A stretch of 64,000 nucleotides of DNA, taken from NCBI GenBank assembly GCA_964507625.1, contig CAZDPR010000001.1, forward strand, positions 5,012 to 69,011. Direction: 5' to 3'. The notes under the pieces were generated by a model. It searched no databases. It had not been told where the DNA came from and saw only the letters and a program-made list of their open reading frames with translations. This document shows positions 18,401 to 60,430 of this stretch, one piece after another (the first letter of the stretch is position 1; each line of letters begins with the position of its first letter). Made by a program: the position numbers and the translations under genes. Source of the stretch: an uncultured Candidatus Saccharibacteria bacterium (GTDB lineage Bacteria; Patescibacteriota; Minisyncoccia; Phycocordibacterales; UBA1006).

Positions 18401-18652
18401 AATATAGTATTTTTTTAAATTTATAAATTTTTCAAATAATATTATTAGTATAGTATGTGGATACTGTGGATAAATCCAGAAACCTTTTTAAATAAAACTA
18501 TTTTAATAATTCGACCTGTGTATAATAATTATTATTATACACATATGAAATGTAGATAAATTGAAGGGAATGTAAAAAGAAATTGTATCCAAAATGTTTT
18601 CAGAAATTATCCCTCTCTATTTTCCCTGATTATAAACAAGTTTTTCCACAGA
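18401..18652. promoter_or_regulatory. oriC segment between dnaA and dnaN (DnaA boxes plus AT-rich unwinding element)
   Basis: TGTGGATAC at 18457 and perfect TGTGGATAA at 18466; flanking AT-rich run AAATTTATAAATTTTTCAAATAATATTATTAG. Confidence 0.6.
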
Positions 18653-20005: not shown

Positions 20006-20182
20006 AGGCTTTAAAATAAATAACGAAACGAGCTAATAAAAAGATATCCACAGTATACACTGTTTTTATATTTTATTAAAATGTCCTTAAAAGAGGAAAA
20101 AACTGTGGAAAACTTGTTGAAACAGTGGATAACTAAACAAGGACTTGTCTTTTTTGTTTTTTTGTGTAATATAAGAAATATT
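20006..20182. promoter_or_regulatory. oriC segment upstream of dnaA, plus dnaA and rpmH promoters
   Basis: DnaA-box-like ATATCCACA at 20044, TGTGGAAAA at 20104, AGTGGATAA at 20123. Confidence 0.5.
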
Positions 20183-20317
20183 ATGTCAGTGACCTATCAA
20201 CCAAAAGTCGGAAAAAGAAAGCGAAAGCATGGTTTTTTAGTACGACAAGCAACTACTGCTGGACGAAATGTTATTCGTAACCGTCGCCGTAAAGGACGAG
20301 CTAAACTAAGTGTTTAA
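20183..20317 (+). CDS. rpmH: 50S ribosomal protein L34
   Basis: [44 protein letters not shown]; classic L34. Confidence 0.85.
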
Positions 20318-20318
20318 A

Positions 20319-20351
20319 TAAAAAATCCTTATAAAATAAGGATTTTTTATT
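20319..20351 (+). terminator. terminator of the CCTTATAAAATAAGG family
   Basis: AAAAAATCCTTATAAAATAAGGATTTTTTATT. Confidence 0.6.
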
Positions 20352-20385
20352 TTAATTTTTATTATAATCATGATATACTTATTAT

Positions 20386-20709
20386 ATGATCAGTAAAAAA
20401 AACAAGATTTCTAAAGACTTTTTTCCTCAAGTAATGAAAGGAAAAAGAAAGTTAGGTAAATTTGCTGATATTATTATATCCCCTTCCCTTTCTCATAAAG
20501 TCCATGCAGGGGTAGTAATAAGTAAAAAAAATGTAAAAACGGCAGTATTAAGAAATACTTTAAAAAGAATGTTTTATAATAAAATATCTGTACAAAAAGA
20601 TAGAATTCCTCAAAAAACATATGTGTTATATGTTAAAAAACTAATAACTAAAGATATGTTAGAAGAATTTAAAAAAGATCTCTATGAATTATGTATATTT
20701 TCTTCTTAA
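20386..20709 (+). CDS. rnpA: ribonuclease P protein component
   Basis: 107 aa, basic; conserved rpmH-rnpA-yidD-yidC synteny. Confidence 0.6.
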
Positions 20710-20914
20710 AAAAATAATATTATTGAGTATTTCTTTATATCAACGTATTATTCGTCCAATATTACCTCATTCATGTCGGTTTCACCCTTCGTGTTCAGAA
20801 TATACTCGTCAGAGTATTGAAAAATATGGACCTATTAAAGGATCTTTACAAGGGGTAAAAAGAATTTTTCAATGTCATCCATGGAATCCCGGCGGATATG
20901 ATCCAGTAGAGTAA
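20684..20914 (+). CDS. yidD: membrane protein insertion efficiency factor YidD
   Basis: [19 protein letters not shown]...[16 protein letters not shown] signature. Confidence 0.8.
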
Positions 20915-20942
20915 TTATTTTATTAGTATTTATTAAATTTAT

Positions 20943-21644
20943 ATGTTTCAAACATTTATTATTATCCCTTTAAGTAATGCTTTAGTGTTTCTCACAAGTT
21001 TATTTTTTAATAATTTAGGTATTGCAGTGATAGTACTAACACTTCTTGTTAAAATAATACTTTTTCCATTATCACTGTCGACCTTAAAAAGTCAGGCAGC
21101 CCTTAAAAAAATTCAACCACTTATTGATGATATTAAGAAAAAATATACTGATAAAAATGAACAAGCTATTAAAATAATGGAACTTTATAAGGAACACAAA
21201 GCAAATCCTCTTACTGGATGTTTACCACTATTAATCCAATTACCAATTATTATTGGGCTATATCAAGTATTTTTACGAGGAGATACCTCATTAAATCCTG
21301 ATATTATTTATTCTTTTATACAAGTCCCAGAATCAATATCGCATATGTTTTTAGGATTTGATTTACGAGAAAAAAGTGCATTACTAGCACTATTTGCTGG
21401 TGTTGCTCAATATTTTCAACTATATTATTCACCAATGCATGCTCAAAAAAATGAACAAAAAGAAAAAAGTACTGATCCACAAATGGTTATGATGGAAAAT
21501 ATGCAAAAGAATTTACGTTATATACTTCCTATTATGATTGTTATTTTTACTTTCTTTACCCCGTCGGCCATAGCATTATATTTAATTGTTTCAAGTATTT
21601 TCACATTAGTACAAGAAATTATTATTACTAAAAAAATATCATAA
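20943..21644 (+). CDS. yidC: YidC/Oxa1-family membrane insertase (short form)
   Basis: 233 aa; ...KIMELYKEHKANPLTGCLPLLIQLPIIIGLYQVF... and synteny. Confidence 0.75.
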   Translation: MFQTFIIIPLSNALVFLTSLFFNNLGIAVIVLTLLVKIILFPLSLSTLKSQAALKKIQPLIDDIKKKYTDKNEQAIKIMELYKEHKANPLTGCLPLLIQLPIIIGLYQVFLRGDTSLNPDIIYSFIQVPESISHMFLGFDLREKSALLALFAGVAQYFQLYYSPMHAQKNEQKEKSTDPQMVMMENMQKNLRYILPIMIVIFTFFTPSAIALYLIVSSIFTLVQEIIITKKIS

Positions 21645-21645
21645 T

Positions 21646-21671
21646 AAAAACACTCGTACGAGTGTTTTTAT
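21646..21671. terminator. bidirectional terminator
   Basis: AAACACTCG-tac-GAGTGTTTTTATT. Confidence 0.65.
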
Positions 21672-21676
21672 TATGA

Positions 21677-23197
21677 TTAATCATTACCTCCCATACGATA
21701 TGACCAAAGTTCATATGTATTTTTATTCATAAAAAATAGGTATTCTGCAGTTTTATCAGATTCAATACGAATCACATCAACTGATTCAGGAAATACAGCT
21801 AAATTTTCTAATTCTCCAGTAGATAAGGTATATTTTTGCAAAGTATCTGAAAAACGACTAATTCCTTTATACCAAACATCAGGATACACACCCTGAGGTA
21901 TAGTATTAGGAACACCACAAATAAGTATATCATCGTTATACCAAGTACACTTTTCAGGGAGGGTTATAAATGGAACAAGAGTACTCTGAAGATTGTTTAG
22001 TGTAATAATTTTAGTTACTAATTGATTGTTTTCCCAAGCACTAATTAATGTTTTTGTTCCACTCGGGTTTGTATTGGTAGTAAGCCCATTTATAGGACCT
22101 AGTTTTTTCTGAAAACTATTTGTTTGTGGATTTAATTGATACATATACCCCTCTACAGTACCAGCTGCGTAGGTAGTAAGAGTAATAATTGAATCAGAAA
22201 CAAATTGTGGTAACCATTCAGAAAATGGTGAATTGAAAATAATTTCTCTTTTTTTGTTAGTAAAATCTTCTAAAATTCCTTGTATTTCTCCAGTTTCCTT
22301 ATTTTGAATAATTGAGAAGAAAATATTACTCGTAGGATTTTTTACTAACTGTTTATAATAACCAGAAAGAGGTAATCCAGTAATATTTTGTGAAGTATTT
22401 TTAATTTCATTATAATAATTTCTTAAATCTTCACATGTTTTATTAATAAATAAAAGAGTTTCATTATTAACAATACCATCAACAGGAAGATTATTATTTT
22501 TTTGATATATTTTTATATATTCACTTGTTTTATTACCAAAGGATCCATCGCTAATTATTGGTATAGTAATTCTATCATTTAAAAATTTTTGTATATTAGA
22601 AACATTATTATTTTTGTCACCAATTTTTGCTGGTGAAAAATCTTGTAAACAATAATCAGGAGTTGTTTCAGTTTTAGGGAAATTAATAATAAAACTTTCT
22701 ATAGAATTATTTTGTTCATACCGAAGAATACTAGTATTTGCATTATTATTAAAAATAAGCTCTTCCCCAGAAGGAAGGTCTGTATTTGTTATTTTTCTAT
22801 TTATTATATTATTAATATTAATAATACCTTCAAAAAAATGTCCATTTCTTTGGTCATTATAACGAATAAAGTGTTCACTATTTTTAATAAATGATTTATA
22901 ACCAGAAACTGGGAAATTGGTAATTTTTCTCAAACGATTTGTAGTATTATTATAATTAGGATCTCCAAGAAAAATAATATCAGAACTATCAAAAGGATTA
23001 TTATTTAACTCAGCAGGAATTATATCTTCAACTAACATTTCTCGATCACTAAAAGGAAATAAATTTGAATTAGTAATTGGATTTATTAAGGTTTCTTTAT
23101 TCCTATTAAAAATAATATACCCTACAATACCTAAAAAAATAATCAGAAAAATAAATGCAATAATAAAAAGTCGTTTACCTTTTTGGTCCATATGCAA
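21677..23197 (-). CDS. N-terminally anchored, N-rich hypothetical protein with a peptidoglycan-binding (PG_binding_1-like) segment
   Basis: 506 aa; TM near the N-terminus; ...GNKTSEYIKIYQKNNNLPVDGIVNNETL... resembles the PG_binding_1 repeat; last gene of the T4SS-like operon. Confidence 0.45.
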   Translation of the reverse strand: MHMDQKGKRLFIIAFIFLIIFLGIVGYIIFNRNKETLINPITNSNLFPFSDREMLVEDIIPAELNNNPFDSSDIIFLGDPNYNNTTNRLRKITNFPVSGYKSFIKNSEHFIRYNDQRNGHFFEGIININNIINRKITNTDLPSGEELIFNNNANTSILRYEQNNSIESFIINFPKTETTPDYCLQDFSPAKIGDKNNNVSNIQKFLNDRITIPIISDGSFGNKTSEYIKIYQKNNNLPVDGIVNNETLLFINKTCEDLRNYYNEIKNTSQNITGLPLSGYYKQLVKNPTSNIFFSIIQNKETGEIQGILEDFTNKKREIIFNSPFSEWLPQFVSDSIITLTTYAAGTVEGYMYQLNPQTNSFQKKLGPINGLTTNTNPSGTKTLISAWENNQLVTKIITLNNLQSTLVPFITLPEKCTWYNDDILICGVPNTIPQGVYPDVWYKGISRFSDTLQKYTLSTGELENLAVFPESVDVIRIESDKTAEYLFFMNKNTYELWSYRMGGND

Positions 23198-23225
23198 AAG
23201 TATACCATAAATATTAAAAATTAAA

Positions 23226-23252
23226 TAAAAATACCTTATAAGGTATTTTTAT
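23226..23252 (-). terminator. terminator of the CCTTATAAGG family
   Basis: AAAATACCTTATAAGGTATTTTTATT. Confidence 0.6.
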
Positions 23253-24409
23253 TCTATATCTAATTGAGTAAAACCTTTATTTGTTGAATTTATATCACAT
23301 GACCATTGATTATTAATTATTTTTTTATAAGCAGCAACGACTTTTGGTCCATACGTTCTATTTTCAGGATTACTTGTATTTGAACATAACCACTTTACTC
23401 TATTATTACATTGAGAAGATTTTTCATTAGCACCCCTTCCTCCATTATATGCATGAGCTGCGTATCTAACAATACCCTTTCCTTGAGTGTTTCCTGGGTT
23501 ATTTAAAAAACCTTTTATTAAATTTGCTCCAATATTTGCATTAATTTGAGGGTCATCGAGATTAATTCCTTGTTTTTTTAAAGCAATATGAAGTTGATTT
23601 TGTTTATCTGCAGGCCATTTATAATTAATAGTTTCATTAAATTCTGACTGAATTTTCCTTCGCGTAGCATCAGGAAGTGTATCATAAGCAGTAGTTGGCA
23701 TAATCTGTATAATACCTCGAGCACCAACAGGACTTAAAATTAAACCCTGGTTATTTTTTGCTGTTCCCGCTGAAGACTCTACATACATAAAAGCCTTTAA
23801 AACTGAACAATCTAAACCTACATTATTTGATGCTGATTTTAACACTGAATCATATTCAGTGTTATTTTTGTTATATATGTTTGAAATATCAAGAGGTGTA
23901 GTACTTTGTCCACCACCAGAAACACTTTGATCAAGAGAGAGTTTTCCTACATCCAACTCAAACCCCACCCCACTAATTCTTGGATCCACTAACAATAAAT
24001 CAGGATTAATAGTACGTAAAAGAACAAAAGTACCTAAAAGTAGTAGTAAACCAAGCATAACACTGGTAACTCGTTTCTGTATTTCAGTAAACTTACCAAC
24101 ACTCTGTTCATTGGTTGCATATTGAAATCCATAGATAACTAACATAACCACTCCTAATACTCCTCCAATACCAATACCAATTTCAAATACAAAATTAATA
24201 AATCCTCCAATTCCTTGATATTGTTCTTCATTACCCCCTACTTGTATTCCTTCCACATCACCTAACGGTTCTAAAAGTGTATAGCAACCTTCAGAAAGTT
24301 CTGAGTTACAAGAGGTGAAGTTGGTGGTATTTTGTGCAAAAACTGAAAAAGAAAAAGACATGCCCAATAGAATAAAAAATATAAAAATTTTTCTTTTTTC
24401 TCGTTTCAT
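23249..24409 (-). CDS. membrane-associated lytic transglycosylase (SLT domain), VirB1-like
   Basis: 386 aa; signal/TM; hydrophobic G-rich segment; C-terminal ...MYVESSAGTAKNNQGLILSPVGARGIIQIMPTTAYD... fits the SLT family-1 ES...S.AGA.GLMQ.MP.TA motif. Confidence 0.6.
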   Translation of the reverse strand: MKREKRKIFIFFILLGMSFSFSVFAQNTTNFTSCNSELSEGCYTLLEPLGDVEGIQVGGNEEQYQGIGGFINFVFEIGIGIGGVLGVVMLVIYGFQYATNEQSVGKFTEIQKRVTSVMLGLLLLLGTFVLLRTINPDLLLVDPRISGVGFELDVGKLSLDQSVSGGGQSTTPLDISNIYNKNNTEYDSVLKSASNNVGLDCSVLKAFMYVESSAGTAKNNQGLILSPVGARGIIQIMPTTAYDTLPDATRRKIQSEFNETINYKWPADKQNQLHIALKKQGINLDDPQINANIGANLIKGFLNNPGNTQGKGIVRYAAHAYNGGRGANEKSSQCNNRVKWLCSNTSNPENRTYGPKVVAAYKKIINNQWSCDINSTNKGFTQLDIE

Positions 24410-24413
24410 ATAA

Positions 24414-25412
24414 TTATTCGTTTATTTTTTTAAAATAAGCAGTAAGAACACTAGATGTATTCTGAAGAAAAGTAATAGGATTTTCTATTGTTACAGAGAA
24501 ATTTGTTCTCCCTGTTTGGTTTGGGTGAGAAATAAGAATCTCATTTTTAGGAGCGTTTGAATCTAAGTAAAATATTTGACCACCAATTTTCCAATTAAAA
24601 ATTAAATCATTAAGAGTATTTAATGAAAAAAAGTAAGGTTCAGCAGTAATAATTGATGATTGTTGTGCAATATTTATACCGTTATTTACAGCAGTTAACC
24701 TTCTATATCCTCTATCATTTTTTACATACCAATTAACTTCTGGATTAACAGTAGGTATGTTAATACTTTTTTCTGAAACAATGCGATTATTTTGAGATGA
24801 AATTATTGCTTTTATAAACTCATTATTTCTTAGTTTGTTTTGTTCAATAATAATTGAACTCTTTTTATACCCACCTACATTAAGTATTCTATTTCCATTT
24901 CTTTCCCATAAATAAACTGCATTTTGATGAGATAAACCAGTAGTTTGTTGAAAATCAGGAATACCAGTTATGCGAATATATGACTCTCTTCCAGGCATTT
25001 TTTTACCTTTATAAAAAACTGGAACATAGGAATCTATAGCCTCCCAGAGAAGTGTACTATCTTGAGGACTGATAGTTAATTGTTTTTGAACTGAATTTAA
25101 CCCTAAATTAATAGTTACTAAAATATTAACAACAGAATTATATCCGCCAATAGTAACCTGTTGATCTCGTGCTCCAATTCCTGAATTTTTTGTTTCATTA
25201 TTAATAGTCCAATTGATTTGGTAACGATTTAAATCAACAGTATTACTTAAAAGACGGAGAGAAACAGTGGAAAAAGGTTCAGGAAATTTAGGGTTCATAA
25301 TAATTTCAATATCACTTGCATCAATATTCCCACCAAAAGACCCTATTTGAGCATACACAGGAAGTGAAATAAATATTCCTAAAAACAGTAAAAAATAACT
25401 AATTATTTTCAT
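24414..25412 (-). CDS. secreted hypothetical protein (signal peptide)
   Basis: 332 aa; MKIISYFLLFLGIFISLPVYAQ signal; 4-nt gap to the next gene. Confidence 0.45.
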   Translation of the reverse strand: MKIISYFLLFLGIFISLPVYAQIGSFGGNIDASDIEIIMNPKFPEPFSTVSLRLLSNTVDLNRYQINWTINNETKNSGIGARDQQVTIGGYNSVVNILVTINLGLNSVQKQLTISPQDSTLLWEAIDSYVPVFYKGKKMPGRESYIRITGIPDFQQTTGLSHQNAVYLWERNGNRILNVGGYKKSSIIIEQNKLRNNEFIKAIISSQNNRIVSEKSINIPTVNPEVNWYVKNDRGYRRLTAVNNGINIAQQSSIITAEPYFFSLNTLNDLIFNWKIGGQIFYLDSNAPKNEILISHPNQTGRTNFSVTIENPITFLQNTSSVLTAYFKKINE

Positions 25413-25446
25413 ACGGTAAGTATATCATTATTTATAGTAAAATTAA

Positions 25447-25478
25447 ACTAAAAACAGTGAGGATACTCACTGTTTTTA
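25447..25478 (-). terminator. terminator overlapping the virB4-like stop
   Basis: AAAAACAGTGAG-gata-CTCACTGTTTTTAG. Confidence 0.6.
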
Positions 25479-27287
25479 GTTTAATTCATTTTTTACTTTT
25501 TTCATTTTTAAAATCTGATTAGGATCAGATGTTACAATTTGATCTTCGGTATAACTAGAAATAATTTTAATTGCAACATGTTTTAATCCTGCAAAAAATA
25601 TTCCTTCCCCTACCCCAGATTCTAACAAGGTGTATTTTTCTTCGTTAGTTAAATGGAAAACCTCCTGAAGTGTATCAATTGCAGTTGGAGATTGTTTTAA
25701 AAGTAACTGAATAGAAGAATTGGTAATAATAGGTATTCCGTATCGCGATCGCACAAAATCTCCTACATCCTGAGTAATAGTGGTAATACCCAAAAAATAT
25801 TTTCTTCCTCGTTTTGCAAGCATAAAAAGAAATGCTGCTGCTTCTTCATTTTGCATCATTACCCATGCTTCATCAACAACTAATAATCGTTTTTTAATAT
25901 TTTTTCGAACTGCATTCCAGATAAAATGAGTAATAATATACATTGCTGCAGTTTTAAGCTCATCTTCCATGTCTCGAATAGAGAAAACAATCATTTTCTT
26001 ATTAATATCAACATTAGTCGGACTATTAATAAATCCTGCCCAAGTTCCTCGGGTATATTTTCGGAGTCGTTCAATGAGTGATCCAGCCCCTTCCATTGAG
26101 GCAAGTACCATTTCAAAATCAGACATAAGCGGTGCTTCTGCTTTAGTAAAATCTGAATTAGCCGTAATATCTTTTAATGCATAGGTTTCAGTAATAGCGC
26201 GATCAATTATAGAATCTTCTTCTGGAGTAAGTCCTCCTAGTAAAATTCTAAATAATCCTACTAAATGAATAATGTTCGAGCGAAGAACATCGGAAGGTGC
26301 TTCATCTGGTCCAGGAACAGGTACATCAAATGGATTAATATGGTGCTCAGAAGAAAGAGAAATATTAAAATATCTTCCCCCTACTGACTCTGCAAGGTAT
26401 TCATACTCACTTTCTGGGTCGATAACAATAACTTCTGTTTCAAACATTAATGTTCGTAGTATTTCTAGTTTTGTTGCATATGATTTTCCTGCACCAGAAG
26501 TTGCGAAAATTACCGAATTATAGTTTGGCATCGAATATCGATCAAACAAAACAAGACCAGCATTTTGTCGATTTACTCCATATAAAATACCTTTATTATC
26601 AGTTAATTCAGAAGAGATAAAAGGAAAAAATGATGATAGTGGCCCAGTATTTAATTTTGTAGGAATATGAAGATTATCAATTCCTAATGGAATACCTGTA
26701 ATAAAACCTTGTTCTTGTTGAAAAAGTGCAGGTTTTAAATAAATCATTTGAGATTCTAACTGTGAACGAATTTCATTTTCTACCTTAAAAAGCTCTTTAT
26801 CACTATTTGCGTATATTGTAATATAAAGCCCTACCTCAAACATTTTTTCTTGTGCTTGCTGGAGACTATCCCTCAAGTTTTCAAGGTTTTGATAGGCAAT
26901 ATCAAGTTCGGGATCACGTACCATTCCTTGTTTTTCTCGTACATAAATTTGACTCTGTACTTCCGCAACTTTTTTCTGAAAATCTTTCATGATTTGTGCT
27001 GTATTAATCGGTGAAACATGCACAGAAACATCAAAAATTTTATCCATATTAACAATCGGAGCCAACCATCCTTCTGTTAAAAACTTTGGGTATGACATAG
27101 TAAAATAGGTTTTACAAATTTTGTCTCCAATTCTAATAAATCCAGAATTAATTTCTACCGCAGAAGGAGCAAGGATATCACGAAGCTCGAGTGCTGCGTT
27201 AGTATAAATATCAGTCGGAAGAACTGGGATAGCTTCGGGTTGATTATTCTGTTTTGTTTTGCTGAATAGGCTATCAAAAATTCCCAT
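25476..27287 (-). CDS. virB4: VirB4/TraE/CagE-family type IV secretion ATPase
   Basis: 603 aa; Walker A FATSGAGKSYATK, Walker B LLVVDEAWVMM; overall VirB4 architecture. Confidence 0.8.
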   Translation of the reverse strand: MGIFDSLFSKTKQNNQPEAIPVLPTDIYTNAALELRDILAPSAVEINSGFIRIGDKICKTYFTMSYPKFLTEGWLAPIVNMDKIFDVSVHVSPINTAQIMKDFQKKVAEVQSQIYVREKQGMVRDPELDIAYQNLENLRDSLQQAQEKMFEVGLYITIYANSDKELFKVENEIRSQLESQMIYLKPALFQQEQGFITGIPLGIDNLHIPTKLNTGPLSSFFPFISSELTDNKGILYGVNRQNAGLVLFDRYSMPNYNSVIFATSGAGKSYATKLEILRTLMFETEVIVIDPESEYEYLAESVGGRYFNISLSSEHHINPFDVPVPGPDEAPSDVLRSNIIHLVGLFRILLGGLTPEEDSIIDRAITETYALKDITANSDFTKAEAPLMSDFEMVLASMEGAGSLIERLRKYTRGTWAGFINSPTNVDINKKMIVFSIRDMEDELKTAAMYIITHFIWNAVRKNIKKRLLVVDEAWVMMQNEEAAAFLFMLAKRGRKYFLGITTITQDVGDFVRSRYGIPIITNSSIQLLLKQSPTAIDTLQEVFHLTNEEKYTLLESGVGEGIFFAGLKHVAIKIISSYTEDQIVTSDPNQILKMKKVKNELN

Positions 27288-27289
27288 AA

Positions 27290-27952
27290 TTAATTATTTT
27301 CCAATGCTCCTACAGAACTGTGGAGCTCTCCTGGGTTAAAGTTAGATTGATAAAGTTCAATAAGCTCTGCGGTTTCGAGTTGCTTTGATTGAATTCCCAT
27401 ACTAGTAAGACCGCTTGTAACAACTGCAATACGTTGCTCAATTTGTGATCGAGATTCTTCAAACCGACGAACATCAATAGATTGTTCATAAAGTGTTTTT
27501 TTCTTTGATGCCCCAAACAAGTCTCCAATACCACCAAGTAATGATGTTTGTCTTGCATTATTGAGCGGTCCACCAGCAAAGGTGACTACAACATAAAAAT
27601 ACTTTGTCATTATGTTGTAAGATTCATTAAACCAACGAATAAATTCGATATATTCCCGGGTTTGAATACGGAGAAGTTCTTCAGGAATCTCTTCAAGCCG
27701 TTTCTCAAGCGATAAAATGTAAGGACGAATATCGAGTCTTCGAGAAGATGCTTGTATTTGAATTGGAAATTCAAGTGAATTAAGAAAATTTTGAAAACTC
27801 ATAATGGTTGCCTGTTGTTCATCCACTGATTTTAAACCAAGATTTACTGGGGTTGCCATAACCACAGCCCGCATTTCTCCGTTTTGGAGAACTACAATCC
27901 CATCTCGAATTTCTTTGATAGGGACAAATTTTTGTGAAGGAGTTTGTGCCAT
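27290..27952 (-). CDS. hypothetical protein translationally coupled upstream of virB4-like
   Basis: 220 aa; 2-nt gap to virB4; could be a split N-terminal VirB4 domain or an accessory factor. Confidence 0.4.
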   Translation of the reverse strand: MAQTPSQKFVPIKEIRDGIVVLQNGEMRAVVMATPVNLGLKSVDEQQATIMSFQNFLNSLEFPIQIQASSRRLDIRPYILSLEKRLEEIPEELLRIQTREYIEFIRWFNESYNIMTKYFYVVVTFAGGPLNNARQTSLLGGIGDLFGASKKKTLYEQSIDVRRFEESRSQIEQRIAVVTSGLTSMGIQSKQLETAELIELYQSNFNPGELHSSVGALENN

Positions 27953-27956
27953 ACAG

Positions 27957-28370
27957 TTAATTATATCTTGTTTTATCTAAAATATCCAAATTACGCGCAA
28001 TAGATTCAATTTTTCTATGATCAACAACATTTGGTTGTGGTTCTGGTGATGAAATAATAGCAGGTTTTTGATTAACAGGTTTTTGTTTTGATGTAACCTT
28101 CTCCCACACATAGAGTTTATCTTTAGATAAATATTGAATAAATGATTGAACAATACTTAAAAAAGGTTGATTATTAAACTTATAAAAAGAAAGCGCTAAT
28201 GAAATTGATGCAATAATAACCATTAAAGGAATTGCAAAAATGATAGGAAGAATTTTATAAAGAACAAAAACAATTCCTCCGCCACCTGCAAGATAAATAA
28301 ACTGTTTAAAAGTAAGTGGTCCAAAAAGTTTATCTTCGATGTCAATAAATTGTGGTACTTCAAATCTCAT
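27957..28370 (-). CDS. small 2-TM membrane protein, VirB3/PrgI-like by position
   Basis: 137 aa; two hydrophobic helices; sits just upstream of the ATPase, as VirB3 homologs do. Confidence 0.4.
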   Translation of the reverse strand: MRFEVPQFIDIEDKLFGPLTFKQFIYLAGGGGIVFVLYKILPIIFAIPLMVIIASISLALSFYKFNNQPFLSIVQSFIQYLSKDKLYVWEKVTSKQKPVNQKPAIISSPEPQPNVVDHRKIESIARNLDILDKTRYN

Positions 28371-28426
28371 ATAGTTTTAGTATACCAGATAAAAAGAAAA
28401 GACAGTATGGAATACATACTGTCAGT

Positions 28427-29086
28427 CTATAAATTTTCGATCGTGGTGTCGACGATCTGTTTTTTTTTGATTAACATATCGCGTAATTTTTCAGTACTGA
28501 GAAGTGGTGTGGTTTCTGGGATTGGAGAAGTTGTTTTTTGTGGATTAAAAATAATAGGATTCCCAACAGGTTTTGTTTCCGGTATTATTGGCGAACTTCC
28601 AACGGTTCGAACCAACTTTGCTTCAGGTGTAATAATAGGTGTTTCTTCTGTAGTTAATTCAATACCATTTGATAATAACGAGTCTTTCGTATTTATTTCT
28701 GATACAGGATTAAAATTAATATTTGGTTCTGATTTTTTTTCACCACCATGTACAATATAATCATGAATAGGGGTAAACACTTTCTTGACTACTTCTCCTA
28801 AAAGAGATTCCACTTGAGCTGGAGAAAGTGCAAGTCGAACTGCAAGTTCGTTTGGATAATCATTAGGTGAAACCATGCCTACAAGTACTAAAATAGTTTC
28901 AATTTGAAAATCTTCAATTTCACTATCAATAATTCCATTACTTTTCCCAATTTCAGTTATTTGTTTAAGCCAATCAAAAGAAAGGAGTGCCCTTCGGTTA
29001 ATTTCAGGAAGTTTCTGCAATTCTTCCTCAAATACTTGTTTCATTTTTTCATTTTTAAATGTGAGCATAGATGCTATAAGTATCAC
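28427..29086 (-). CDS. hypothetical protein with a P/T-rich C-terminal tail
   Basis: 219 aa; C-terminal TTEETPIITPEAK...PIPETTPLLS low-complexity linker. Confidence 0.4.
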   Translation of the reverse strand: MILIASMLTFKNEKMKQVFEEELQKLPEINRRALLSFDWLKQITEIGKSNGIIDSEIEDFQIETILVLVGMVSPNDYPNELAVRLALSPAQVESLLGEVVKKVFTPIHDYIVHGGEKKSEPNINFNPVSEINTKDSLLSNGIELTTEETPIITPEAKLVRTVGSSPIIPETKPVGNPIIFNPQKTTSPIPETTPLLSTEKLRDMLIKKKQIVDTTIENL

Positions 29087-29123
29087 ATGTATAAAATAAA
29101 AATCAAGGATTTCTCCTTGATTT

Positions 29124-31856
29124 TTATTTTTTCATACGACCTCGAGCATCATTAGCGGCTCTATTTGCTGCTTGATTGTTCTTAATATTAGACCCACCAA
29201 TATTTCCGTTAGTAATAACTCCTAAAAGCCCAGAAAGACCTTGAGTATACATACCGCGATCTTTTTTTAACTCATACGAACCGGCAATATTTTCAAGAGT
29301 GGTATTTAAAACTTGTTGCCCCCGAAACTGAGTATCAAGTAATTGTGTTTGTAAACCTGTTCCAATATCGATAAATGTTTGAAGTCTCCCCATTTCTTGT
29401 TCTTGATATTTTTTAGTTGTATCTTTAATCGAGTCTTCGTAAATTTTAATTCTATTATCAAAATTCTCTTTAAGTTTTGAATCAGCTTTTTTAAGAATTG
29501 CAGCAGTTTCATTTATCTTAATATTTCTTTTTGTAATTAGATCTTTAATTCTATTCATTTCTTCTTGATTATTAAGTGTTTCCGCATCTTTAAATTCTTT
29601 CGCTAATTTTTCTCCTTCTGTTTTTTCTTTTAAATAATCTTCACGAGCTTTATCGTAATCTTTCTGTTCTTGACTATTTGTTTTTTGAATTTTTAGTTTT
29701 TCAATTTCATTTTTTAACCCGTTAATTGATTGGTTTTCCATTTCGTTAACATATTCTCCTAATTTATTATTTTCGTTCAAGTATGTTCCTTTTTCTTTTT
29801 CCAATATTAATTTTTCATTTTCCAATTGTTTTTTATAGTTTTTAGTTTCAATAATTTTTTTCTGTAATTCAATGCCTTTGTTTAATAATTTATCCCCTTC
29901 TCCTTCCGTATAATTACCTGCAGTTAGTTGTTTATCTATTGCATCATACTCTGCTTCCAATTTACTCAAATCTTCAAGACCATCAATTTTTGTGTTAACA
30001 TCATCAATTTTTGTGTTAACATCATCAATTTTTTTATTGTTTTCATTAATTTTACTATTTACTTTATCACTTTGAACTGTTTGATTTCCTGTTTCGATTT
30101 CAATTTTTTGTTTCTCTGCTTCTAATTTTTCTTGGTTTTCAGCTAATTCTTTTCTAATAATATCTTCTCGTTCTTTGTTTTTAGCTTCTCGTTTACCTGC
30201 AACATAATCAGTATTTTCTTTCGATCGTTTTTCTGCATTTTTTGAAACATCGCCTAAATAATTATCAATACTTTTCTTACCATACTTACCTTCTGTTAAA
30301 TAGTTACTTTTACTACCAGTTCCAATATTAATATCACCAGCACCAATTTTATTGGTTGCTTGACCAAATCTTTTCATAAATTGGGCATTATTACGAACAT
30401 CAAATGTTAGCGCGCTTGTTTTATCTCCTGCCTGCATAAAGTTTCGTGCAGCCCAACCAGAAATACCGCCTTTTTCTGCTGTTTTTAATAATCCCTCACT
30501 ATTCCCAATAGCAGCACCTGCGCGTCCAAGTGTTTGTCTCCCTAAAAAGGCTGCTCCCCCCAATGTTGCACCTGCGGCAACACCTGTCGCCATTGTTCCA
30601 ATAGTACCACTCACCTTTGCGGCCATTTCACCGATCACTCCAGCCATTTGTGTTGCAAATTTTTTCCCTTGCATGAGAATAAAAAGAGAAATAAGTAATG
30701 GGATTAATGTTTTTAAAACAATTCCTACAACATTAATAAGCCAAAACCCATCTCCTTCTAGTTGACTCGCAACACTATTCCCAATATCAAGTTTTAAAAG
30801 AGTAGCCGCCAGATAAACAAAAAATAAATATAATGGAGTTAAAAAAGCAAGATTAGTAAAATTTTTCATCCAATTTTCAAAACCAATATAGGGATTTTTT
30901 TCTAAAAAAGGAATTGCAAATGAAACAAAAGCAATTGGAGATAAAATAATTCCAAGCCACAAACCAATAATTCGTCCAAGAAAAATTAATCCCATTTGTA
31001 CAAACATGGCAATTAATATAAGGAGTATAAAAAATATCATAAACCCAACAATAAGATATGAAGTATAAGAACCTTCTTGGTCAGTTTTTATGTTGGCCTG
31101 CTTAAAAAGTGTTTGAGGTTGAACATTTTTTATTAACTGCATGGATATTGGTTTTACTTGATTATCTCGCATTACTCTTTCAATGGTTCCAACCTTATCA
31201 ATATTAGCTTGACCGACTACAATCTGGTTTGCGATTACATGAGAAAAAACATCTGCAGTTTGAATAATTATTCTACAAAAAAACATACTGAAATTAACAA
31301 GGAGTGCCATAATAACAACGCGCACAACTGTTTTTTTTGGACTAAACCCATTCAAAACTCCATCACCTCCTTCTTTTCCTGCGATAAGCATAAAGGCAGA
31401 AGTAAAGAGGGCAAAAATAAATCCAATATTTGCCAAGTCACGAGTAATTTTCCATGCAGATTGAATACCGCTCTCAATAGAGCTCCCAGGAACACCATAC
31501 ACTATTGGGTTGATTGACATTGTTAAAAAAACATCAGCTAAAATACCGGTAAGCATTGCAATAGCATTAGGAACAAAGGTTACCAGGTCTATAATCACAA
31601 GCACTAATGAACACCCAAAATCTTTCCAGCCACAGTCGACAAAATCGTTTGCCTGAGACTCTGTTCCAGAAGTTTGAGCCAAAACAAAACTTTTTTCGAC
31701 AGACACGTTAAATAAGTTTCCACCCACATTATCAAAATCTATAGATTGACCAATGGGATTTTTAACACCCTTCTGGGTAACAGAAAAAGTCATAGGAGTA
31801 AAAATTCCCATGAAACTAAAAAAAAGTATTAACGATGCAATAAATGAACGCATCAT
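29124..31856 (-). CDS. VirB6/TrbL-like polytopic membrane protein with a long C-terminal coiled-coil extension
   Basis: 910 aa; at least 6 hydrophobic helices in the first 450 aa, G/A-rich segment, then a K/E/N-rich coiled coil containing a KIDDVNT tandem repeat. Confidence 0.5.
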   Translation of the reverse strand: MMRSFIASLILFFSFMGIFTPMTFSVTQKGVKNPIGQSIDFDNVGGNLFNVSVEKSFVLAQTSGTESQANDFVDCGWKDFGCSLVLVIIDLVTFVPNAIAMLTGILADVFLTMSINPIVYGVPGSSIESGIQSAWKITRDLANIGFIFALFTSAFMLIAGKEGGDGVLNGFSPKKTVVRVVIMALLVNFSMFFCRIIIQTADVFSHVIANQIVVGQANIDKVGTIERVMRDNQVKPISMQLIKNVQPQTLFKQANIKTDQEGSYTSYLIVGFMIFFILLILIAMFVQMGLIFLGRIIGLWLGIILSPIAFVSFAIPFLEKNPYIGFENWMKNFTNLAFLTPLYLFFVYLAATLLKLDIGNSVASQLEGDGFWLINVVGIVLKTLIPLLISLFILMQGKKFATQMAGVIGEMAAKVSGTIGTMATGVAAGATLGGAAFLGRQTLGRAGAAIGNSEGLLKTAEKGGISGWAARNFMQAGDKTSALTFDVRNNAQFMKRFGQATNKIGAGDINIGTGSKSNYLTEGKYGKKSIDNYLGDVSKNAEKRSKENTDYVAGKREAKNKEREDIIRKELAENQEKLEAEKQKIEIETGNQTVQSDKVNSKINENNKKIDDVNTKIDDVNTKIDGLEDLSKLEAEYDAIDKQLTAGNYTEGEGDKLLNKGIELQKKIIETKNYKKQLENEKLILEKEKGTYLNENNKLGEYVNEMENQSINGLKNEIEKLKIQKTNSQEQKDYDKAREDYLKEKTEGEKLAKEFKDAETLNNQEEMNRIKDLITKRNIKINETAAILKKADSKLKENFDNRIKIYEDSIKDTTKKYQEQEMGRLQTFIDIGTGLQTQLLDTQFRGQQVLNTTLENIAGSYELKKDRGMYTQGLSGLLGVITNGNIGGSNIKNNQAANRAANDARGRMKK

Positions 31857-31903
31857 AACTGTTGTTAGTATAACATAGGTAGTTATTTAATTACAATAAA
31901 AAT

Positions 31904-31930
31904 AAAAAGCCATAACGGCTTTTTATTGTG
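31904..31930 (-). terminator. internal terminator/attenuator within the T4SS-like operon
   Basis: AAAAAGCC-ataa-CGGCTTTTTATT. Confidence 0.55.
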
Positions 31931-34793
31931 AAAATGAATCTTTAAAAATATAACTCACAATTTCACTTTCTTTTGTGGTATACCACTGAGATCCATTAAT
32001 AAGTTTACATCGTAATTCTCCATTTTTCTTTGTACCCCTATCATCATTAACTTCTAATAACCATACAGAAAATGGACAAAGATAATGACGATTTAAACTT
32101 CTTTCTCCTGGGTCTTGATTAAAAATTTCCCAAATATTTCGCGCAGGTTGTACCTGGTATTTATCGCTCGAATCACGACTTTCCCGAATACCTGTATCCT
32201 GATAACAAGGTCCAGTGGTTGGGTTTGCGCATTGACCACCCTCTATCATATCTTCTGGAAAACGGGTTGGGTCAGTAGTAAGAATCGATGAACTACCATC
32301 CTGAATACCCAAACGAACTACATCAGTTCTAAACTCATTTTGTCGTCGTATTAGTATTTGTCGTAATTGTTCATGAGCATTTTTATTTGTTGGAGCACTT
32401 GGGTTTCCAATAAGCCCAACATTTTGTTCAGTAATAGTTCTAAGTAATCTACAATCATGGAGATTGTCTTGAATGTCTAAGGTTATGGATCGTAATTCAT
32501 TAATATCTAATTCTGACTGGTCAACATCTCTTTTTATTGAAACTCTTTCAGCAACTGCATTATATTCTGTTCTGATTTGATTTTTTTTCTCTAAAAATAA
32601 TTCAGATCGGGATATTGGTGCGGTTCCCAATATCTGCTCTCGTCGTTGTTGCAACTCTACAACAGAAGGTTGTCCAAAATTCCAATAATCAGATGCAGTA
32701 ATACTGGTCCCTTGAATAGTATCTATTTGAACTAATTTAAAATATGCTTCTGGTTTTTCCCAAATATTCCAAAAATGATTCATTACATAGTCAAACTCAC
32801 CTTGTTCACTAGTTGGAACATCTGTAGCAGTTGAATTTTTTACCCAATTCAGCATTTCTGTTTTATCCGCCCTTGAAAGCGCTTTCCATTCCGAAGGGGA
32901 AAAAACAATTTTTGTTCGTATTGATTCAGGAATAATTCCACTAGGAATCAATGCAAAGCTTTGACGAATATCATTTTTAAGCTTTCTTAAAACATTTAAT
33001 GCAGTTTGTTTTTTAATTAGATCGGATCGTTTTTTTCCGTATACTTTTTGCACATCAATTAATTTATTGGTTTGAGATTGAAAAGTAAATGCTCCTGGAA
33101 TATTTCGCTCTGGGTCTGACATCCATACTTCTACTTCTGCCTTAGCGAGAGGTACTGCGGTTTCAATAATATCTTTTGCTTGCTCTCTATTTTCTTGTTT
33201 ATTATCAGTTCCTCCCCCTGATGCAAGTTTTGCTTCTAAATTTCTTGTTTGTACTTGAACATATTTATCAATTTTATCTACAAAATCAAAGTCAGGACCA
33301 GGAACACATGCGCTGAGTTGCGAAACGAGCTTTGGAAATGATTTGTTTTCATTTACTCCATTTTCTTCTACAGACACCAGTGGTTTACCTCCGATAATAG
33401 ATATGTATTCTTGAATTAGTCGTAATTCTTGCTCTGTATATTCAAGCGCAAGACTAAAATCAGATCGTAAATCCACAACGTTTATAGGGGCTTGTGTCCA
33501 ATTTATAATTCCACCTGAAACTGATTGGAGTTGTTCTGGTCCTCCAATGGCGGGGGGTGATTGTCGATAATCAGCACGAAGTGATGCAAGTCCCGACTGA
33601 AGAAAGCTGTTTGCCATACTTACAAAAATACCCGCAACCACCTCTCCAATTTCATCAACGTTTTTAATTTTATCCATCGCGAGATCAGTAGCTCCTTGCA
33701 GACCACTCGATACTAACCCTAAAGGATTTTGGATTGTTTCTACTAAACATCGTCCAAAATCTTCAACTAAAACTTGTGTATTTGTTGCGAGCGTGTTTCT
33801 TAATCCCTGTACCTGACCCTGAATTTCTTTTATTTCCTCTAGTTCTTTATTATACCGGGCAATATCATTTCCCCAGTTTTTATATTCATCTTGTAACATT
33901 GACATTTCTATTTGTAGTTGTTGTGCTCTCGTTTCATTTCCCGCATTTTTTGCTTCTTGTATTTTAGGTGGAAATGCAGTAATTTTGGGAGATAAAAGCA
34001 TTTGTTCCTGTATTGCTTCTTGTATAAGTGTATTTAATCGATTGATTTCTTGTTGCGCCATTTTTAATGCGGTAGTATCTTCACCTGTTTCAATCTGTTG
34101 TTGATTTACACCCTGAAACTCATCTCTATTTTTCTTTATTGTTTTAATTTGTTGTGCATAGTCAGAAAAATTAAGTGAACACGCCTGTTGCTGAGGGAGT
34201 ATTCCTGGGCTCGTTAATTTAATCATTTCGTTTTCCCGAGCACGCTCAATAGTTACCCCTAATTGTCGTTGTGCGATCAAGCTTGAACCAATTCCAGTAT
34301 TTCCAGGAATAGACATGGCGAGCAATCCATCGTAACCACCAACACTTGCGTCTTCGTAAAATTCCTGCCAGCGACTACCAACAACTCTATCAAGATTAAA
34401 ACCACCAATAGTGTCAGGTATACCAGGTCCTCCAGCTGTTGAATAAGCAAAAATCATACTACGTGCAATATTTTGAGCGAAAGGGTTTTGTGAAACCTCT
34501 AAGTCAGTAACAAATTTTTGAATTTTTGTTCGTTCGAGATCTGCAAAATAACTATTAAAATCATTTACAAAACTTGGCTGACTATCGTCACCACTGGCCC
34601 CACCATTTGCCTTATTAAAAATTTTATTAGCAAGTTTCGTTCCCGCAGTAGACGCAAGTACATATGCAAGCGTGTCGAGTCCATATTCTTTTATTTGGTT
34701 TGCAACATCAACAAATTGAGCTTGGGATATTTGAGGAACCATGATTACAAAAAGTAATAAAAGGGTAATATTTTTTTTTGTTTTCTTAAACAT
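31923..34793 (-). CDS. large secreted hypothetical protein (956 aa, signal peptide)
   Basis: MFKKTKKNITLLLLFVIMVPQISQAQ signal; no recognisable catalytic motif; candidate surface, pilus or adhesin component. Confidence 0.5.
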   Translation of the reverse strand: MFKKTKKNITLLLLFVIMVPQISQAQFVDVANQIKEYGLDTLAYVLASTAGTKLANKIFNKANGGASGDDSQPSFVNDFNSYFADLERTKIQKFVTDLEVSQNPFAQNIARSMIFAYSTAGGPGIPDTIGGFNLDRVVGSRWQEFYEDASVGGYDGLLAMSIPGNTGIGSSLIAQRQLGVTIERARENEMIKLTSPGILPQQQACSLNFSDYAQQIKTIKKNRDEFQGVNQQQIETGEDTTALKMAQQEINRLNTLIQEAIQEQMLLSPKITAFPPKIQEAKNAGNETRAQQLQIEMSMLQDEYKNWGNDIARYNKELEEIKEIQGQVQGLRNTLATNTQVLVEDFGRCLVETIQNPLGLVSSGLQGATDLAMDKIKNVDEIGEVVAGIFVSMANSFLQSGLASLRADYRQSPPAIGGPEQLQSVSGGIINWTQAPINVVDLRSDFSLALEYTEQELRLIQEYISIIGGKPLVSVEENGVNENKSFPKLVSQLSACVPGPDFDFVDKIDKYVQVQTRNLEAKLASGGGTDNKQENREQAKDIIETAVPLAKAEVEVWMSDPERNIPGAFTFQSQTNKLIDVQKVYGKKRSDLIKKQTALNVLRKLKNDIRQSFALIPSGIIPESIRTKIVFSPSEWKALSRADKTEMLNWVKNSTATDVPTSEQGEFDYVMNHFWNIWEKPEAYFKLVQIDTIQGTSITASDYWNFGQPSVVELQQRREQILGTAPISRSELFLEKKNQIRTEYNAVAERVSIKRDVDQSELDINELRSITLDIQDNLHDCRLLRTITEQNVGLIGNPSAPTNKNAHEQLRQILIRRQNEFRTDVVRLGIQDGSSSILTTDPTRFPEDMIEGGQCANPTTGPCYQDTGIRESRDSSDKYQVQPARNIWEIFNQDPGERSLNRHYLCPFSVWLLEVNDDRGTKKNGELRCKLINGSQWYTTKESEIVSYIFKDSFSQ

Positions 34794-34798
34794 ATTGT

Positions 34799-35752
34799 TT
34801 ATAAGTTAAATAAAATAGTAAATTCAGAAATTTTTTTTTCAACAACATTTATATTTTTTTGAAGCACTAGAAATAAAATCATATTCATCATATCTTGGTC
34901 TTCTGCCGGAAGGTTATTTTTTTGTAAAAAAGTGTCATGAATTTTTGCTAGCGCATTCATAAGTGCTAAGTGTTGATCGATATAATCAAAAGGTACCGGG
35001 ATAGTATATATTTCTCGAGTAAGATTTTGGAATAATATTCTATCTGCTGAAGTGTCAGTATTATTGAAAAAGTTTGGATACCGATTATAAATATCTTGAA
35101 TATTTATTCTTTCGATTATTTTTTTTATTTTTTCCTCATAATCAGATAGTTCTTTGTTTATATTTACCCCTTCTTCATCAAAAATAACTACAACATCTTG
35201 TTCTGCATAAGTTGTCATTTGTCTATCAATAGTGTCTGCAAGATCGAGAATTTCTTTTGCAGTTGCTGCTTGAAGATTTTCTTGGTAATTCCTTCCTATA
35301 GGATTTGTTCGTGCTCTCTCATAAATTGCAAGCGCTAATTGATCACTCGTAGTTAAAATACCTATAGTGTCATTAATAATTGACCGCATTTCAATAGGAA
35401 CTTCTTCGATTGTGGTAAATACCTCAGAATCAGTTCCAATTAATGCTTCTTGCCAATCAGGAATTCCATCCCCATCTGTATCTTTATTAATAACAAAGGA
35501 AACATTTCTCTTGTTGGTATCTATAACTGGTGCAGGAATATCATTCGGTGGAAAAACCTTGGTTTCTATTTTTTTAAATAGTCCAATGATTTGAGACCGC
35601 AACATAATAATGATTACTACGACGAGTATTCCAAATACAGTGAATACTAATTTTTTACTCGGTAAATAACTACTCAATGATCCTGAATATTGTTTTGGTG
35701 GTTCCATGTAATTCTGATCATTTTTTTGTTCATAAAAAAATTTATTTCGCAT
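34799..35752 (-). CDS. membrane-anchored hypothetical protein with a DxDxDG calcium-binding-like motif
   Basis: TM LVFTVFGILVVVIIIML; DTDGDGIPDWQEA (thrombospondin-type-3-like); start set to MRNKFF. Confidence 0.4.
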   Translation of the reverse strand: MRNKFFYEQKNDQNYMEPPKQYSGSLSSYLPSKKLVFTVFGILVVVIIIMLRSQIIGLFKKIETKVFPPNDIPAPVIDTNKRNVSFVINKDTDGDGIPDWQEALIGTDSEVFTTIEEVPIEMRSIINDTIGILTTSDQLALAIYERARTNPIGRNYQENLQAATAKEILDLADTIDRQMTTYAEQDVVVIFDEEGVNINKELSDYEEKIKKIIERINIQDIYNRYPNFFNNTDTSADRILFQNLTREIYTIPVPFDYIDQHLALMNALAKIHDTFLQKNNLPAEDQDMMNMILFLVLQKNINVVEKKISEFTILFNL

Positions 35753-35818
35753 ATCATATAATAGTGTACCAAAAAAGAAAAAAAATAGATATAAAAAACA
35801 CACCACACGGTATGTTTT

Positions 35819-36622
35819 TTATATTAATTGTTCTGCAATAAAAAGCCATGTATCGAGACATATGTCTTCTGCACGAACCGTAGGAGAAAGTTTTGCTTCC
35901 TGGAATAATTTTTCTAATATTTCTTGTGGAATAGAGAGTTCTTGATGTATGTTTTTTAATGCAAGTTTTCTTTTATGTGCAAATCCAGCATGGATTAGTT
36001 GAAAGAACATGTTTTCGTGTTTATGAGAAGTGAAATTTTTTCGAGAAATATCATAAACCGCAATAACACTGGAATCAACTTTTGGGGGAGGGTTAAAGTT
36101 TCCTTTTCCAACATGGGTAATTAATTTTGGTGTTCCATAAGCCTGAACACTCAATGATAATAATGAGTGTTTTTGATCACGAGCTAGAATTCGGGTTGCA
36201 ACTTCTTTCTGAATTAATATAACCATCTGTTTTGGTTGATTATTAAGTGTTAAAAAGTGCCGTAAAATGAGACCGGTAATATTATAAGGAATATTGGCAG
36301 CAATTTGATACTCTTCTCTACCAATAACGGTCTCCAAAGGAAATTGAATAACGTCATCATGAACAAGTTGTAAGTTTCCCTGCTGAATGTCGATAATAAA
36401 TTTTTCTCCAAGAATGGTGAAAAGTTCTCTGTCTTTTTCAATAGCTAATACTCTTTTTCCTGTTCGGATCAGTTTTTCCGTAATTGCCCCCAATCCAGGA
36501 CCAATTTCAACAATCCAGGGAGCAGGACACGATCGGGTCTGCTCTACAATAGTTTTAATAACTCTTTGGGAGTTGAGAAAGTTTTGACCAAGAGATTTTT
36601 TTGGGATTACCGGAAGTGGCAT
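35819..36622 (-). CDS. ksgA: 16S rRNA (adenine1518/1519-N6)-dimethyltransferase RsmA/KsgA
   Basis: SLGQNFL motif, EIGPGLGAIT SAM site; start at MPLPVIP. Confidence 0.8.
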   Translation of the reverse strand: MPLPVIPKKSLGQNFLNSQRVIKTIVEQTRSCPAPWIVEIGPGLGAITEKLIRTGKRVLAIEKDRELFTILGEKFIIDIQQGNLQLVHDDVIQFPLETVIGREEYQIAANIPYNITGLILRHFLTLNNQPKQMVILIQKEVATRILARDQKHSLLSLSVQAYGTPKLITHVGKGNFNPPPKVDSSVIAVYDISRKNFTSHKHENMFFQLIHAGFAHKRKLALKNIHQELSIPQEILEKLFQEAKLSPTVRAEDICLDTWLFIAEQLI

Positions 36623-36640
36623 ATGTTCGCACAGTACCAC

Positions 36641-41636: not shown

Positions 41637-41676
41637 AGTGATAGTATACCAGACAAAAAAATTTTTGTATTCAAAA

Positions 41677-41708
41677 AACAACACCATGATCATGGTGTTG
41701 TTTTTTGA
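41677..41708 (-). terminator. terminator
   Basis: CAACACCATGATCATGGTGTTGTTTTTTG. Confidence 0.65.
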
Positions 41709-60366: not shown

Positions 60367-60430
60367 TTAATTAAAAAAGCTATATTTTATAATGTTTATT
60401 TTAAAAAATATAATTTTTATTCACAAGTCA

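Follow-up and report, generated by a model that had tools for sequence, protein, structure and literature searches.

A type IV secretion gene cluster beside the origin-side genes of an uncultured Candidatus Saccharibacteria bacterium, without DNA-processing genes nearby

A large share of bacterial diversity belongs to the Patescibacteria, whose members live attached to other microbes. What such a cell would do with a type IV secretion system (T4SS) that is set apart from genes for DNA processing is the question raised by a 64,000-nucleotide stretch of DNA (hereafter the window) from an uncultured Candidatus Saccharibacteria bacterium (GenBank assembly GCA_964507625.1, contig CAZDPR010000001.1, positions 5,012 to 69,011 of the forward strand). 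Ten co-oriented open reading frames (ORFs) on its minus strand occupy positions 21677-35806, between ksgA and yidC-rnpA-rpmH-dnaA-dnaN. A first-pass annotation made from the sequence alone had noted how tightly these genes are packed, with gaps that do narrow to 2 nt, and had read them as a T4SS-like apparatus put to a non-conjugative use. The family matches of the core proteins, the lack of a type IV coupling protein (T4CP) or relaxase in the window, a recurrent gene order and the literature all support that interpretation, every element of which is already in print. We regard the cluster as very probably a chromosomal, vertically inherited T4SS of the Patescibacteria (Candidate Phyla Radiation, CPR), of Paceibacteria/Parcubacteria type and derived from MPF-FATA systems, without nearby DNA-processing genes. 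The window presents the Paceibacteria layout cleanly and in full, and adds no new kind of system.

The T4SS core and its conserved setting

The ten cluster proteins (335, 956, 910, 219, 137, 220, 603, 332, 386 and 506 residues in order of transcription) were searched against Pfam and NCBIfam. The motor of the system is the 603-residue product of 25476-27287, a VirB4-family ATPase of the MPF-FATA/CD1110 type. It exceeds the curated cut-off of NF045971 (conju_CD1110; 377.7 bits against 325, E = 1.1e-112), matches P-loop_TraG (2e-25) and has as its best solved relative the C-terminal domain of Thermoanaerobacter VirB4 (PDB 4AG5, 3.7e-41). The Walker A and B motifs that had been claimed for it, a P-loop ATSGAGKS at residues 262-269 and LLVVDE at 468-473, are invariant across 15 homologues. 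The 120 homologues listed share 73-100% identity with it and are mostly unnamed, those with names belonging to Patescibacteria, Paceibacteria or Parcubacteria. An alignment scan of a genome collection with VirB4 yielded 80 loci, mostly labelled Paceibacteria, Parcubacteria, Nomurabacteria or generically "uncultured Candidatus Saccharibacteria", with a single Crocinitomicaceae. As judged from labels rather than a phylogeny, the homologues and loci are consistent with a VirB4 of the Patescibacteria clade.

The annotation had placed a VirB3-like protein directly upstream of virB4. Its identity was borne out, the 137-residue small membrane protein encoded at 27957-28370 being a PrgI family member and VirB3 equivalent (PF12666, 4.2e-10, 40.5 bits against a cut-off of 27), but its position was not, as a TrsD-like gene for 220 residues (27290-27952) lies between the two and ends 2 nt upstream of virB4. 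The 220-residue protein matches the N-terminal regions of VirB4 models, each time below the curated cut-off: NF045975 (7.8e-10, positions 104-233 of 894), TrsD (NF041427, 1.2e-4) and NF045971 (1.4e-4), where it covers positions 2-130 of 752 and the 603-residue protein covers 182-733. Because the two proteins cover separate parts of the CD1110 model, VirB4 is, on the evidence of model coverage, encoded in two pieces, with the TrsD-like protein as the equivalent of the N-terminal domain and the 603-residue protein as the rest. Loci were compared by tblastn and positional ORF analysis, and presence is counted over 83 loci, denoted by L-numbers. Of these, 78 have the TrsD-like gene and 76 have PrgI upstream of it, and the orthologue of the 220-residue protein in locus L002 matches PF26593 (TraC-like).

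The product of 29124-31856, a polytopic membrane protein of 910 residues, had been called VirB6/TrbL-like with a long coiled-coil tail. The architecture stood, with about six to seven transmembrane (TM) segments in residues 1-470 and a lysine- and glutamate-rich coiled-coil tail of about 400 residues. The profile match that the annotation had asked for, found for the 137-residue protein, did not appear here: the 910-residue protein itself matches no VirB6 or TrbL profile, and the link to VirB6 is indirect, through transitive Pfam TrbL matches and fold matches to TrwI and DotA. Its structure was one of two that were predicted, the other being that of the 956-residue protein described below. Taken together, sequence and model suggest a divergent VirB6-like channel. 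PDB profile matches of its family proved to be coiled-coil noise from the tail. The tail also contains a 21-nt tandem repeat in three copies (29976-30059) that codes for KIDDVNT-type heptads, and its length varies widely among species, with whole proteins of 575-1257 residues.

A pilin is provided for as part of a larger protein. The 386-residue protein encoded at 23249-24409 had been described as a VirB1-like SLT lytic transglycosylase, and a C-terminal SLT domain is indeed present (PF01464, 1.6e-8, 34.5 bits against a cut-off of 21.3; its ES, GIIQIM and AYNGG motifs can be read in the translated sequence). That description was incomplete, since a VirB2-like T4SS pilin module with two TM helices (about residues 38-142) follows the signal peptide ahead of the SLT domain. 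The module of the window protein falls below threshold (PF18895, T4SS_pilin, 0.026; NF045849, Mbov_0395 pilin-like, 2.6e-5); among 39 orthologues, PF18895 is matched by 32 (best 3.3e-8) and TrbC/VirB2 by seven. Conserved in 64 loci, the module is the only one of its kind in the window. In this lineage it is never a free small pilin but is embedded in proteins of 168-801 residues, at the N-terminus, in the centre or at the C-terminus, and it is the sole conserved part of the gene family (orthologues L004 to L083). The domains attached to it differ: NlpC/P60 in six orthologues, VanY in four, SLT and YkuD in three each, Amidase_5 in two and 3D in one. The swapped enzyme domains may serve a simple VirB1-type assembly function or reflect adaptation to host cell walls.

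As the annotation had claimed, no VirD4 or relaxase lies in the window. Outside the cluster, the 30 non-nested ORFs of at least 200 residues were scanned against Pfam, and those without a Pfam match against NCBIfam; neither among these nor among the ten cluster proteins was there a family match to a VirD4/TcpA coupling protein or a relaxase. Here and below, statements of absence for VirD4 and relaxase cover the 64-kb window alone.

The setting of the cluster is conserved as well. The comparison next to ksgA and the origin genes that the annotation had proposed showed the order ksgA-335-956-VirB6-(219)-PrgI-TrsD-VirB4-332-pilin-506-yidC-L34-dnaA-dnaN (numbers being protein lengths) to recur in most of about 80 species-level Paceibacteria/Parcubacteria genomes, as judged in loci with enough flank. 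Genes at the same positions keep to size ranges of about 300 residues after ksgA, then about 430-1050, and about 180-380 at the 219-residue site. The flanking yidC, dnaA and dnaN genes follow in the same order in 61, 53 and 50 of the 83 loci, respectively. Conservation is uneven, with a median identity of 68% for VirB4, 49% for TrsD, 42% for PrgI and about 25-33% for the envelope and secreted proteins. VirB4 is the best conserved protein of the region (68% against 53% for DnaA and 44% for KsgA), a comparison biased upward for VirB4 by the choice of loci on VirB4 similarity. The 332-residue, pilin-enzyme and 506-residue genes are fixed partners of the core, and the 335-, 956- and 219-residue genes evolve fast. 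No integrase adjoins the cluster, no direct repeats flank it beyond low-complexity chance matches, no tRNA lies at its borders, and its G+C content (27-36%) is similar to that of the flanks. Because the gene order recurs in most of these genomes and conservation is uneven in this way, the comparison indicates an old, vertically inherited system under selection with a rapidly diverging outer part, and not an integrated mobile element; the housekeeping-level integration that had been proposed from ksgA adjacency holds on this broader ground.

Lineage-specific envelope and secreted proteins

Five of the cluster genes lie outside the recognizable core. Directly downstream of virB4, at 24414-25412, is a gene for a secreted protein of 332 residues with a hydrophobic, signal-like N-terminal segment. 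The family was detected in 74 of 83 loci, always in this place in the loci examined, and some of its orthologues match BiPBP_C (six), Ig_3 (three) and PKD_6 (one), from which we judge that the protein is probably built of immunoglobulin (Ig)-like beta-sandwich domains. A family search at E ≤ 1e-3 gave 2,498 representatives clustered at 50% identity, of which the best 150, those listed, are nearly all 290-415 residues long; this large family has no Pfam family. WD40 matches in the PDB were rejected as an artefact in which one short motif is multiplied by repetitive targets, no stretch passing alone.

The last gene of the cluster (21677-23197) encodes a membrane-anchored protein of 506 residues, with a TM segment at 11-29. 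The peptidoglycan-binding domain attributed to it was found (PG_binding_1, 8.2e-11, 42.4 bits against a cut-off of 23), but the domain is not what defines the family: it occurs in nine of 40 orthologues and sits in a weakly TolB/PD40-like core, probably the common element, that would form a beta-propeller (PD40 in two of 40; family profile against TolB 7mx5, 7.8e-4). The family is present in 64 of 83 loci.

At the other end, the first gene after ksgA (34799-35806) encodes a membrane-anchored protein of 335 residues with a TM segment at 53-71 and a DxDxDG calcium-binding (TSP3-like) motif. The match to TSP3_bac (5e-5, 23.5 bits) lies just under the Pfam cut-off of 25, and the family profile matches calcium-binding loops in the PDB. 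In an alignment of 22 positional orthologues (A6) both M19 and DxDxDG are kept, and because of this alignment the true start is probably the ATG at 35752, which would leave about 66 nt after ksgA in place of the 12 nt given by the ORF as called. A gene for about 300 residues stands at this position in most loci.

The adjacent gene (31923-34793) encodes a fast-evolving protein of 956 residues that conserves cysteines and is predicted to be all-helical. Its N-terminus has a hydrophobic, signal-like segment, so that both proteins which had been called secreted, this and the 332-residue one, keep that label. It matches nothing by sequence in Pfam, NCBIfam or the PDB, and the search for its family found 19 homologues including itself, the 18 others falling from 84% to 25% identity. 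The structural comparison that the annotation had suggested yielded no relative: the AlphaFold2 (AF2) model (predicted local distance difference test, pLDDT, 67) is helical, and Foldseek returned non-significant helical matches only from the PDB. In 37 loci the VirB6-like gene is preceded, within 300 nt, by the end of an ORF of at least 400 residues (428-1051).

The fifth of these genes (28427-29086), flanked by those for the VirB6-like protein and PrgI, encodes a soluble, variable accessory protein of 219 residues with no TM segment and no family match in Pfam or NCBIfam. A positional ORF of 177-383 residues occurs at this site in 41 loci, and no gene is called there in L002. That the 219-residue gene might be a C-terminal piece split off from the longer VirB6-like protein seen in L002 was ruled out, no similarity between the two being found. 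The 335-, 219-, 332- and 506-residue families were each considered as VirB8 candidates and dropped, with no support in Pfam, NCBIfam or PDB profiles.

Function of the system and rival explanations

Systems of this kind have been described repeatedly. Homologues of VirB4, VirB6 and VirB2, together with an array of secreted proteins, are found across Saccharibacteria and other CPR (McLean et al., 2020; PMC7427843). In Southlakia epibionticum, transposon sequencing (Tn-seq) showed the T4SS genes SEML1_0006-0019 to be essential for epibiotic growth (Wang et al., 2023; PMC10633639), and that system is without a recognisable coupling protein or relaxase and has unusual pilins (PMC10633639). VirB4 is present in 2,417 of 3,035 genomes, where it forms a Patescibacteria clade nested in MPF-FATA; TrsD (the most abundant T4SS component in Patescibacteria), PrgI, VirB6, VirB1 and VirB2-like genes are catalogued near virB4, and, above all in Paceibacteria and Microgenomatia, the systems lie near dnaA, dnaN, rnpA, ksgA and rpmH (Quinonero-Coronel et al., 2025; PMC12102498). 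According to a 2025 review, these systems are unique among monoderms and the only T4SSs for which a requirement in the growth of the carrier has been reported; the review speculates that they form a conduit through which the cell takes up material from its host (PMC12857230). A 2026 preprint describes tubular structures, possibly T4SS pili, that reach the host at the contact site in a cultivated Patescibacteria strain, one that takes up RNA from its host (bioRxiv 10.64898/2026.06.21.733656).

The window cluster resembles the Patescibacteria-clade systems of PMC12102498 in its MPF-FATA-type VirB4, the adjacent TrsD-like gene, PrgI/VirB3, the VirB1- and VirB2-like parts and a putative VirB6-like part near virB4, the lack of a nearby relaxase or T4CP and the position beside dnaA, dnaN, rnpA, ksgA and rpmH; nothing essential differs. 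The system, the missing relaxase and the origin-side position are thus all published (McLean et al., 2020; Wang et al., 2023; Quinonero-Coronel et al., 2025), and what our analysis adds is small. The pilin module is carried in larger proteins with enzyme domains that vary between species, an interspecies swap that we did not find stated in PMC12102498; the 332-residue Ig-like family, large and without a Pfam family, and the 506-residue propeller family are fixed downstream partners; and a fast-evolving 335/956-residue pair follows ksgA. The split between fixed and fast-evolving genes is useful for picking targets in the few cultivable relatives.

Other systems offer further points of comparison. 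With Southlakia epibionticum ML1 and Nanosynbacter lyticus TM7x the cluster shares a monoderm-type T4SS with pilin-like subunits and no recognisable coupling protein or relaxase (here, in the window), and the low locus-tag numbers SEML1_0006-0019 suggest an origin-proximal position in Southlakia, too. The Saccharimonadia have four to six small, free-standing VirB2-like pilins, whereas at the window locus one pilin module is present, and it is joined to a cell-wall enzyme. The VirB4 family, PrgI/VirB3, TrsD and the putative VirB6-type channel recall the Gram-positive MPF-FATA systems (pCF10 Prg, pGO1 Trs, Clostridioides difficile CTn2), as does a peptidoglycan hydrolase anchored in the membrane, in the manner of PrgK or TraG. 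Unlike pCF10, pGO1 and CTn2, the window contains no relaxase, T4CP or oriT, and neither a PrgB-type adhesin nor a VirB8-like PrgL was detected. To our knowledge, Gram-positive conjugative T4SSs have no VirB2-like pilin module; the window system differs from them in possessing one and in being chromosomally fixed and vertically inherited. A lack of coupling protein and relaxase (in the window) is also shared with Bordetella Ptl and Helicobacter ComB. These two belong to the diderm MPF-T type, whose outer-membrane core proteins VirB7, VirB9 and VirB10 are all missing from the cluster.

Bordetella Ptl, which exports toxin, and Helicobacter ComB, which takes up DNA, illustrate that systems without a T4CP can export Sec-delivered proteins or import DNA. 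For the window system we lean toward a non-conjugative, envelope-spanning machine at the parasite-host interface, a function that seems to us somewhat more probable than the alternatives combined and is held less firmly than the identity of the system. In such a machine, PrgI and the VirB6-like channel, both in the cytoplasmic membrane, could be what VirB4 and the TrsD-like protein dock on, while the SLT domain would open the cell wall, and the pilin module and secreted proteins would form the wall-spanning, host-facing part. The whole could act as a conduit between episymbiont and host, for protein export, uptake of host macromolecules or both, rather than for conjugation.

It is conceivable, though we would not bet on it, that the host-facing half is no reduced conjugation channel but a distinct, lineage-specific organelle, in which a single VirB2-like module carries interchangeable peptidoglycan-active domains matched to the wall of the host and breaches that wall for uptake, for example of RNA. 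The widespread 332-residue Ig-like protein, the propeller anchor and the fast-evolving 956-residue helical protein would be its partners, a proposal as tentative as the organelle itself. If true, the locus would be a determinant of host range.

A second and rather unlikely alternative is a competence-type T4SS for DNA uptake, like Helicobacter ComB or archaeal Ced, that imports host or environmental DNA as a source of nucleotides or genes. Like ComB, the cluster combines VirB4, VirB3 and, probably, VirB6-type parts, and neither a T4CP nor a relaxase is found in the window; an ATPase of the YifB family (ComM-like) is encoded three genes off (TIGR00368, 9e-166), in a neighbourhood kept in L002 and L028; two SLOG/DprA-like genes occur in the window; and in ABY1-class genomes T4SS loci co-localise with comF, recG and radA (PMC12102498). 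Against this, competence in Southlakia needs type IV pili and comEC, and cells deleted for comEC lose competence yet stay viable, while those of the T4SS are essential genes (PMC12857230). The 603-residue VirB4 matches the Ced importer ATPase CedB weakly (35.5 bits against a cut-off of 700), and no ComB-specific or Ced-specific partner (ComB2-10; CedA/A1/A2) was detected among the cluster proteins in Pfam or NCBIfam.

Finally, an integrative conjugative element or its decaying remnant, with relaxase, T4CP and integrase outside the window, is highly improbable and largely refuted: the CD1110 family of VirB4 is typified by conjugative transposons and some 5.5 kb separate ksgA from a gene for a tyrosine recombinase, but that recombinase, the sole one in the window, is Xer-type, VirB4 is highly conserved with intact motifs, most of about 80 species-level genomes keep the gene order and the housekeeping genes on either side, no border tRNA, flanking direct repeats or G+C shift was seen in the window, and across 3,035 Patescibacteria genomes there are 109 relaxase homologues, in 103 genomes, with 15 near virB4 (PMC12102498).

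Several points nevertheless weigh against a vertically inherited, non-conjugative machine made as one unit. The essentiality data come from a class other than the Paceibacteria, the Saccharimonadia. VirD4-like genes lie far from virB4 in most Patescibacteria genomes (PMC12102498), and a distant VirD4-like gene or relaxase may be encoded beyond the window. No match to VirB8, PrgL or TcpC was obtained in Pfam, NCBIfam or PDB profiles for the five unassigned families, although a divergent VirB8 fold may be among them, since structure prediction covered one of the five, the 956-residue protein. Transcription signals bear on the idea of a single operon. The gaps within the cluster measure 5, 66, 37, 56, 4, 2, 63, 4 and 51 nt in order of transcription, so that four junctions are very tight (5, 4, 2 and 4 nt) and the remaining gaps span 37-66 nt. 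Coding-strand hairpins occupy larger gaps (ksgA|335, 956|910, 219|PrgI and VirB4|332), and a fifth follows the last gene. One of these is a perfect palindromic hairpin of 20 bp between virB4 and the 332-residue gene (25442-25485); similar ones lie at 31901-31927, 28401-28423 and 21638-21677. The region has 19 terminator-like sites against 7.5 ± 3.1 in shuffled sequence. Such gap hairpins suggest several transcription units and not one operon, or, alternatively, elements of RNA processing or stability.

Flanking genes and other features of the window

The cluster adjoins the usual origin-side gene set. Its downstream neighbours (17294-21644), identified by Pfam matches, are dnaN and dnaA on the minus strand and rpmH, rnpA and yidC on the plus strand, the last cluster gene and yidC being convergent. 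Upstream lies ksgA (35819-36640, minus strand; rRNA adenine dimethylase, PF00398, 1.4e-46), from which the cluster had been said to continue directly. The adjacency is kept in 36 loci; the continuity is weakened by a terminator-like hairpin with a T-run (35789-35824, minus strand) between the ksgA stop codon and the first cluster gene, a hairpin that is not conserved in related loci. Conserved adjacency to ksgA would not in itself imply a transcript shared with the cluster.

Divergent from ksgA is a gene for a wall hydrolase with LysM and Peptidase_M23 domains (36939-38006, plus strand), and beyond it that of the YifB family ATPase (38044-39558, minus strand). M23 and LysM domains are among those of T4SS-associated hydrolases (PMC12102498). 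In L002, the closest relative with enough upstream flank, M23 and YifB occupy the same positions; in L028, dksA and YifB adjoin virB4 on the opposite side, just after virB4, and no M23 match was found.

Three further ORFs have no Pfam or NCBIfam match, at 40011-41693 (minus strand, 560 residues), 51885-54923 (plus strand, 1012 residues) and 57321-59525 (plus strand, 734 residues). At the end of the window, 60000-64000, the ORFs have no Pfam match and neither rRNA nor any other RNA family is identified by Rfam, and the G+C content there is 0.41-0.45 against about 0.27-0.37 elsewhere. On the far side of dnaN, the two SLOG/LDcluster4 genes (DprA-like fold; 12677-13222 and 14850-15371, minus strand) are paralogous, and each adjoins a gene for a SAM-dependent methyltransferase (13226-13933 and 15380-16066, respectively).

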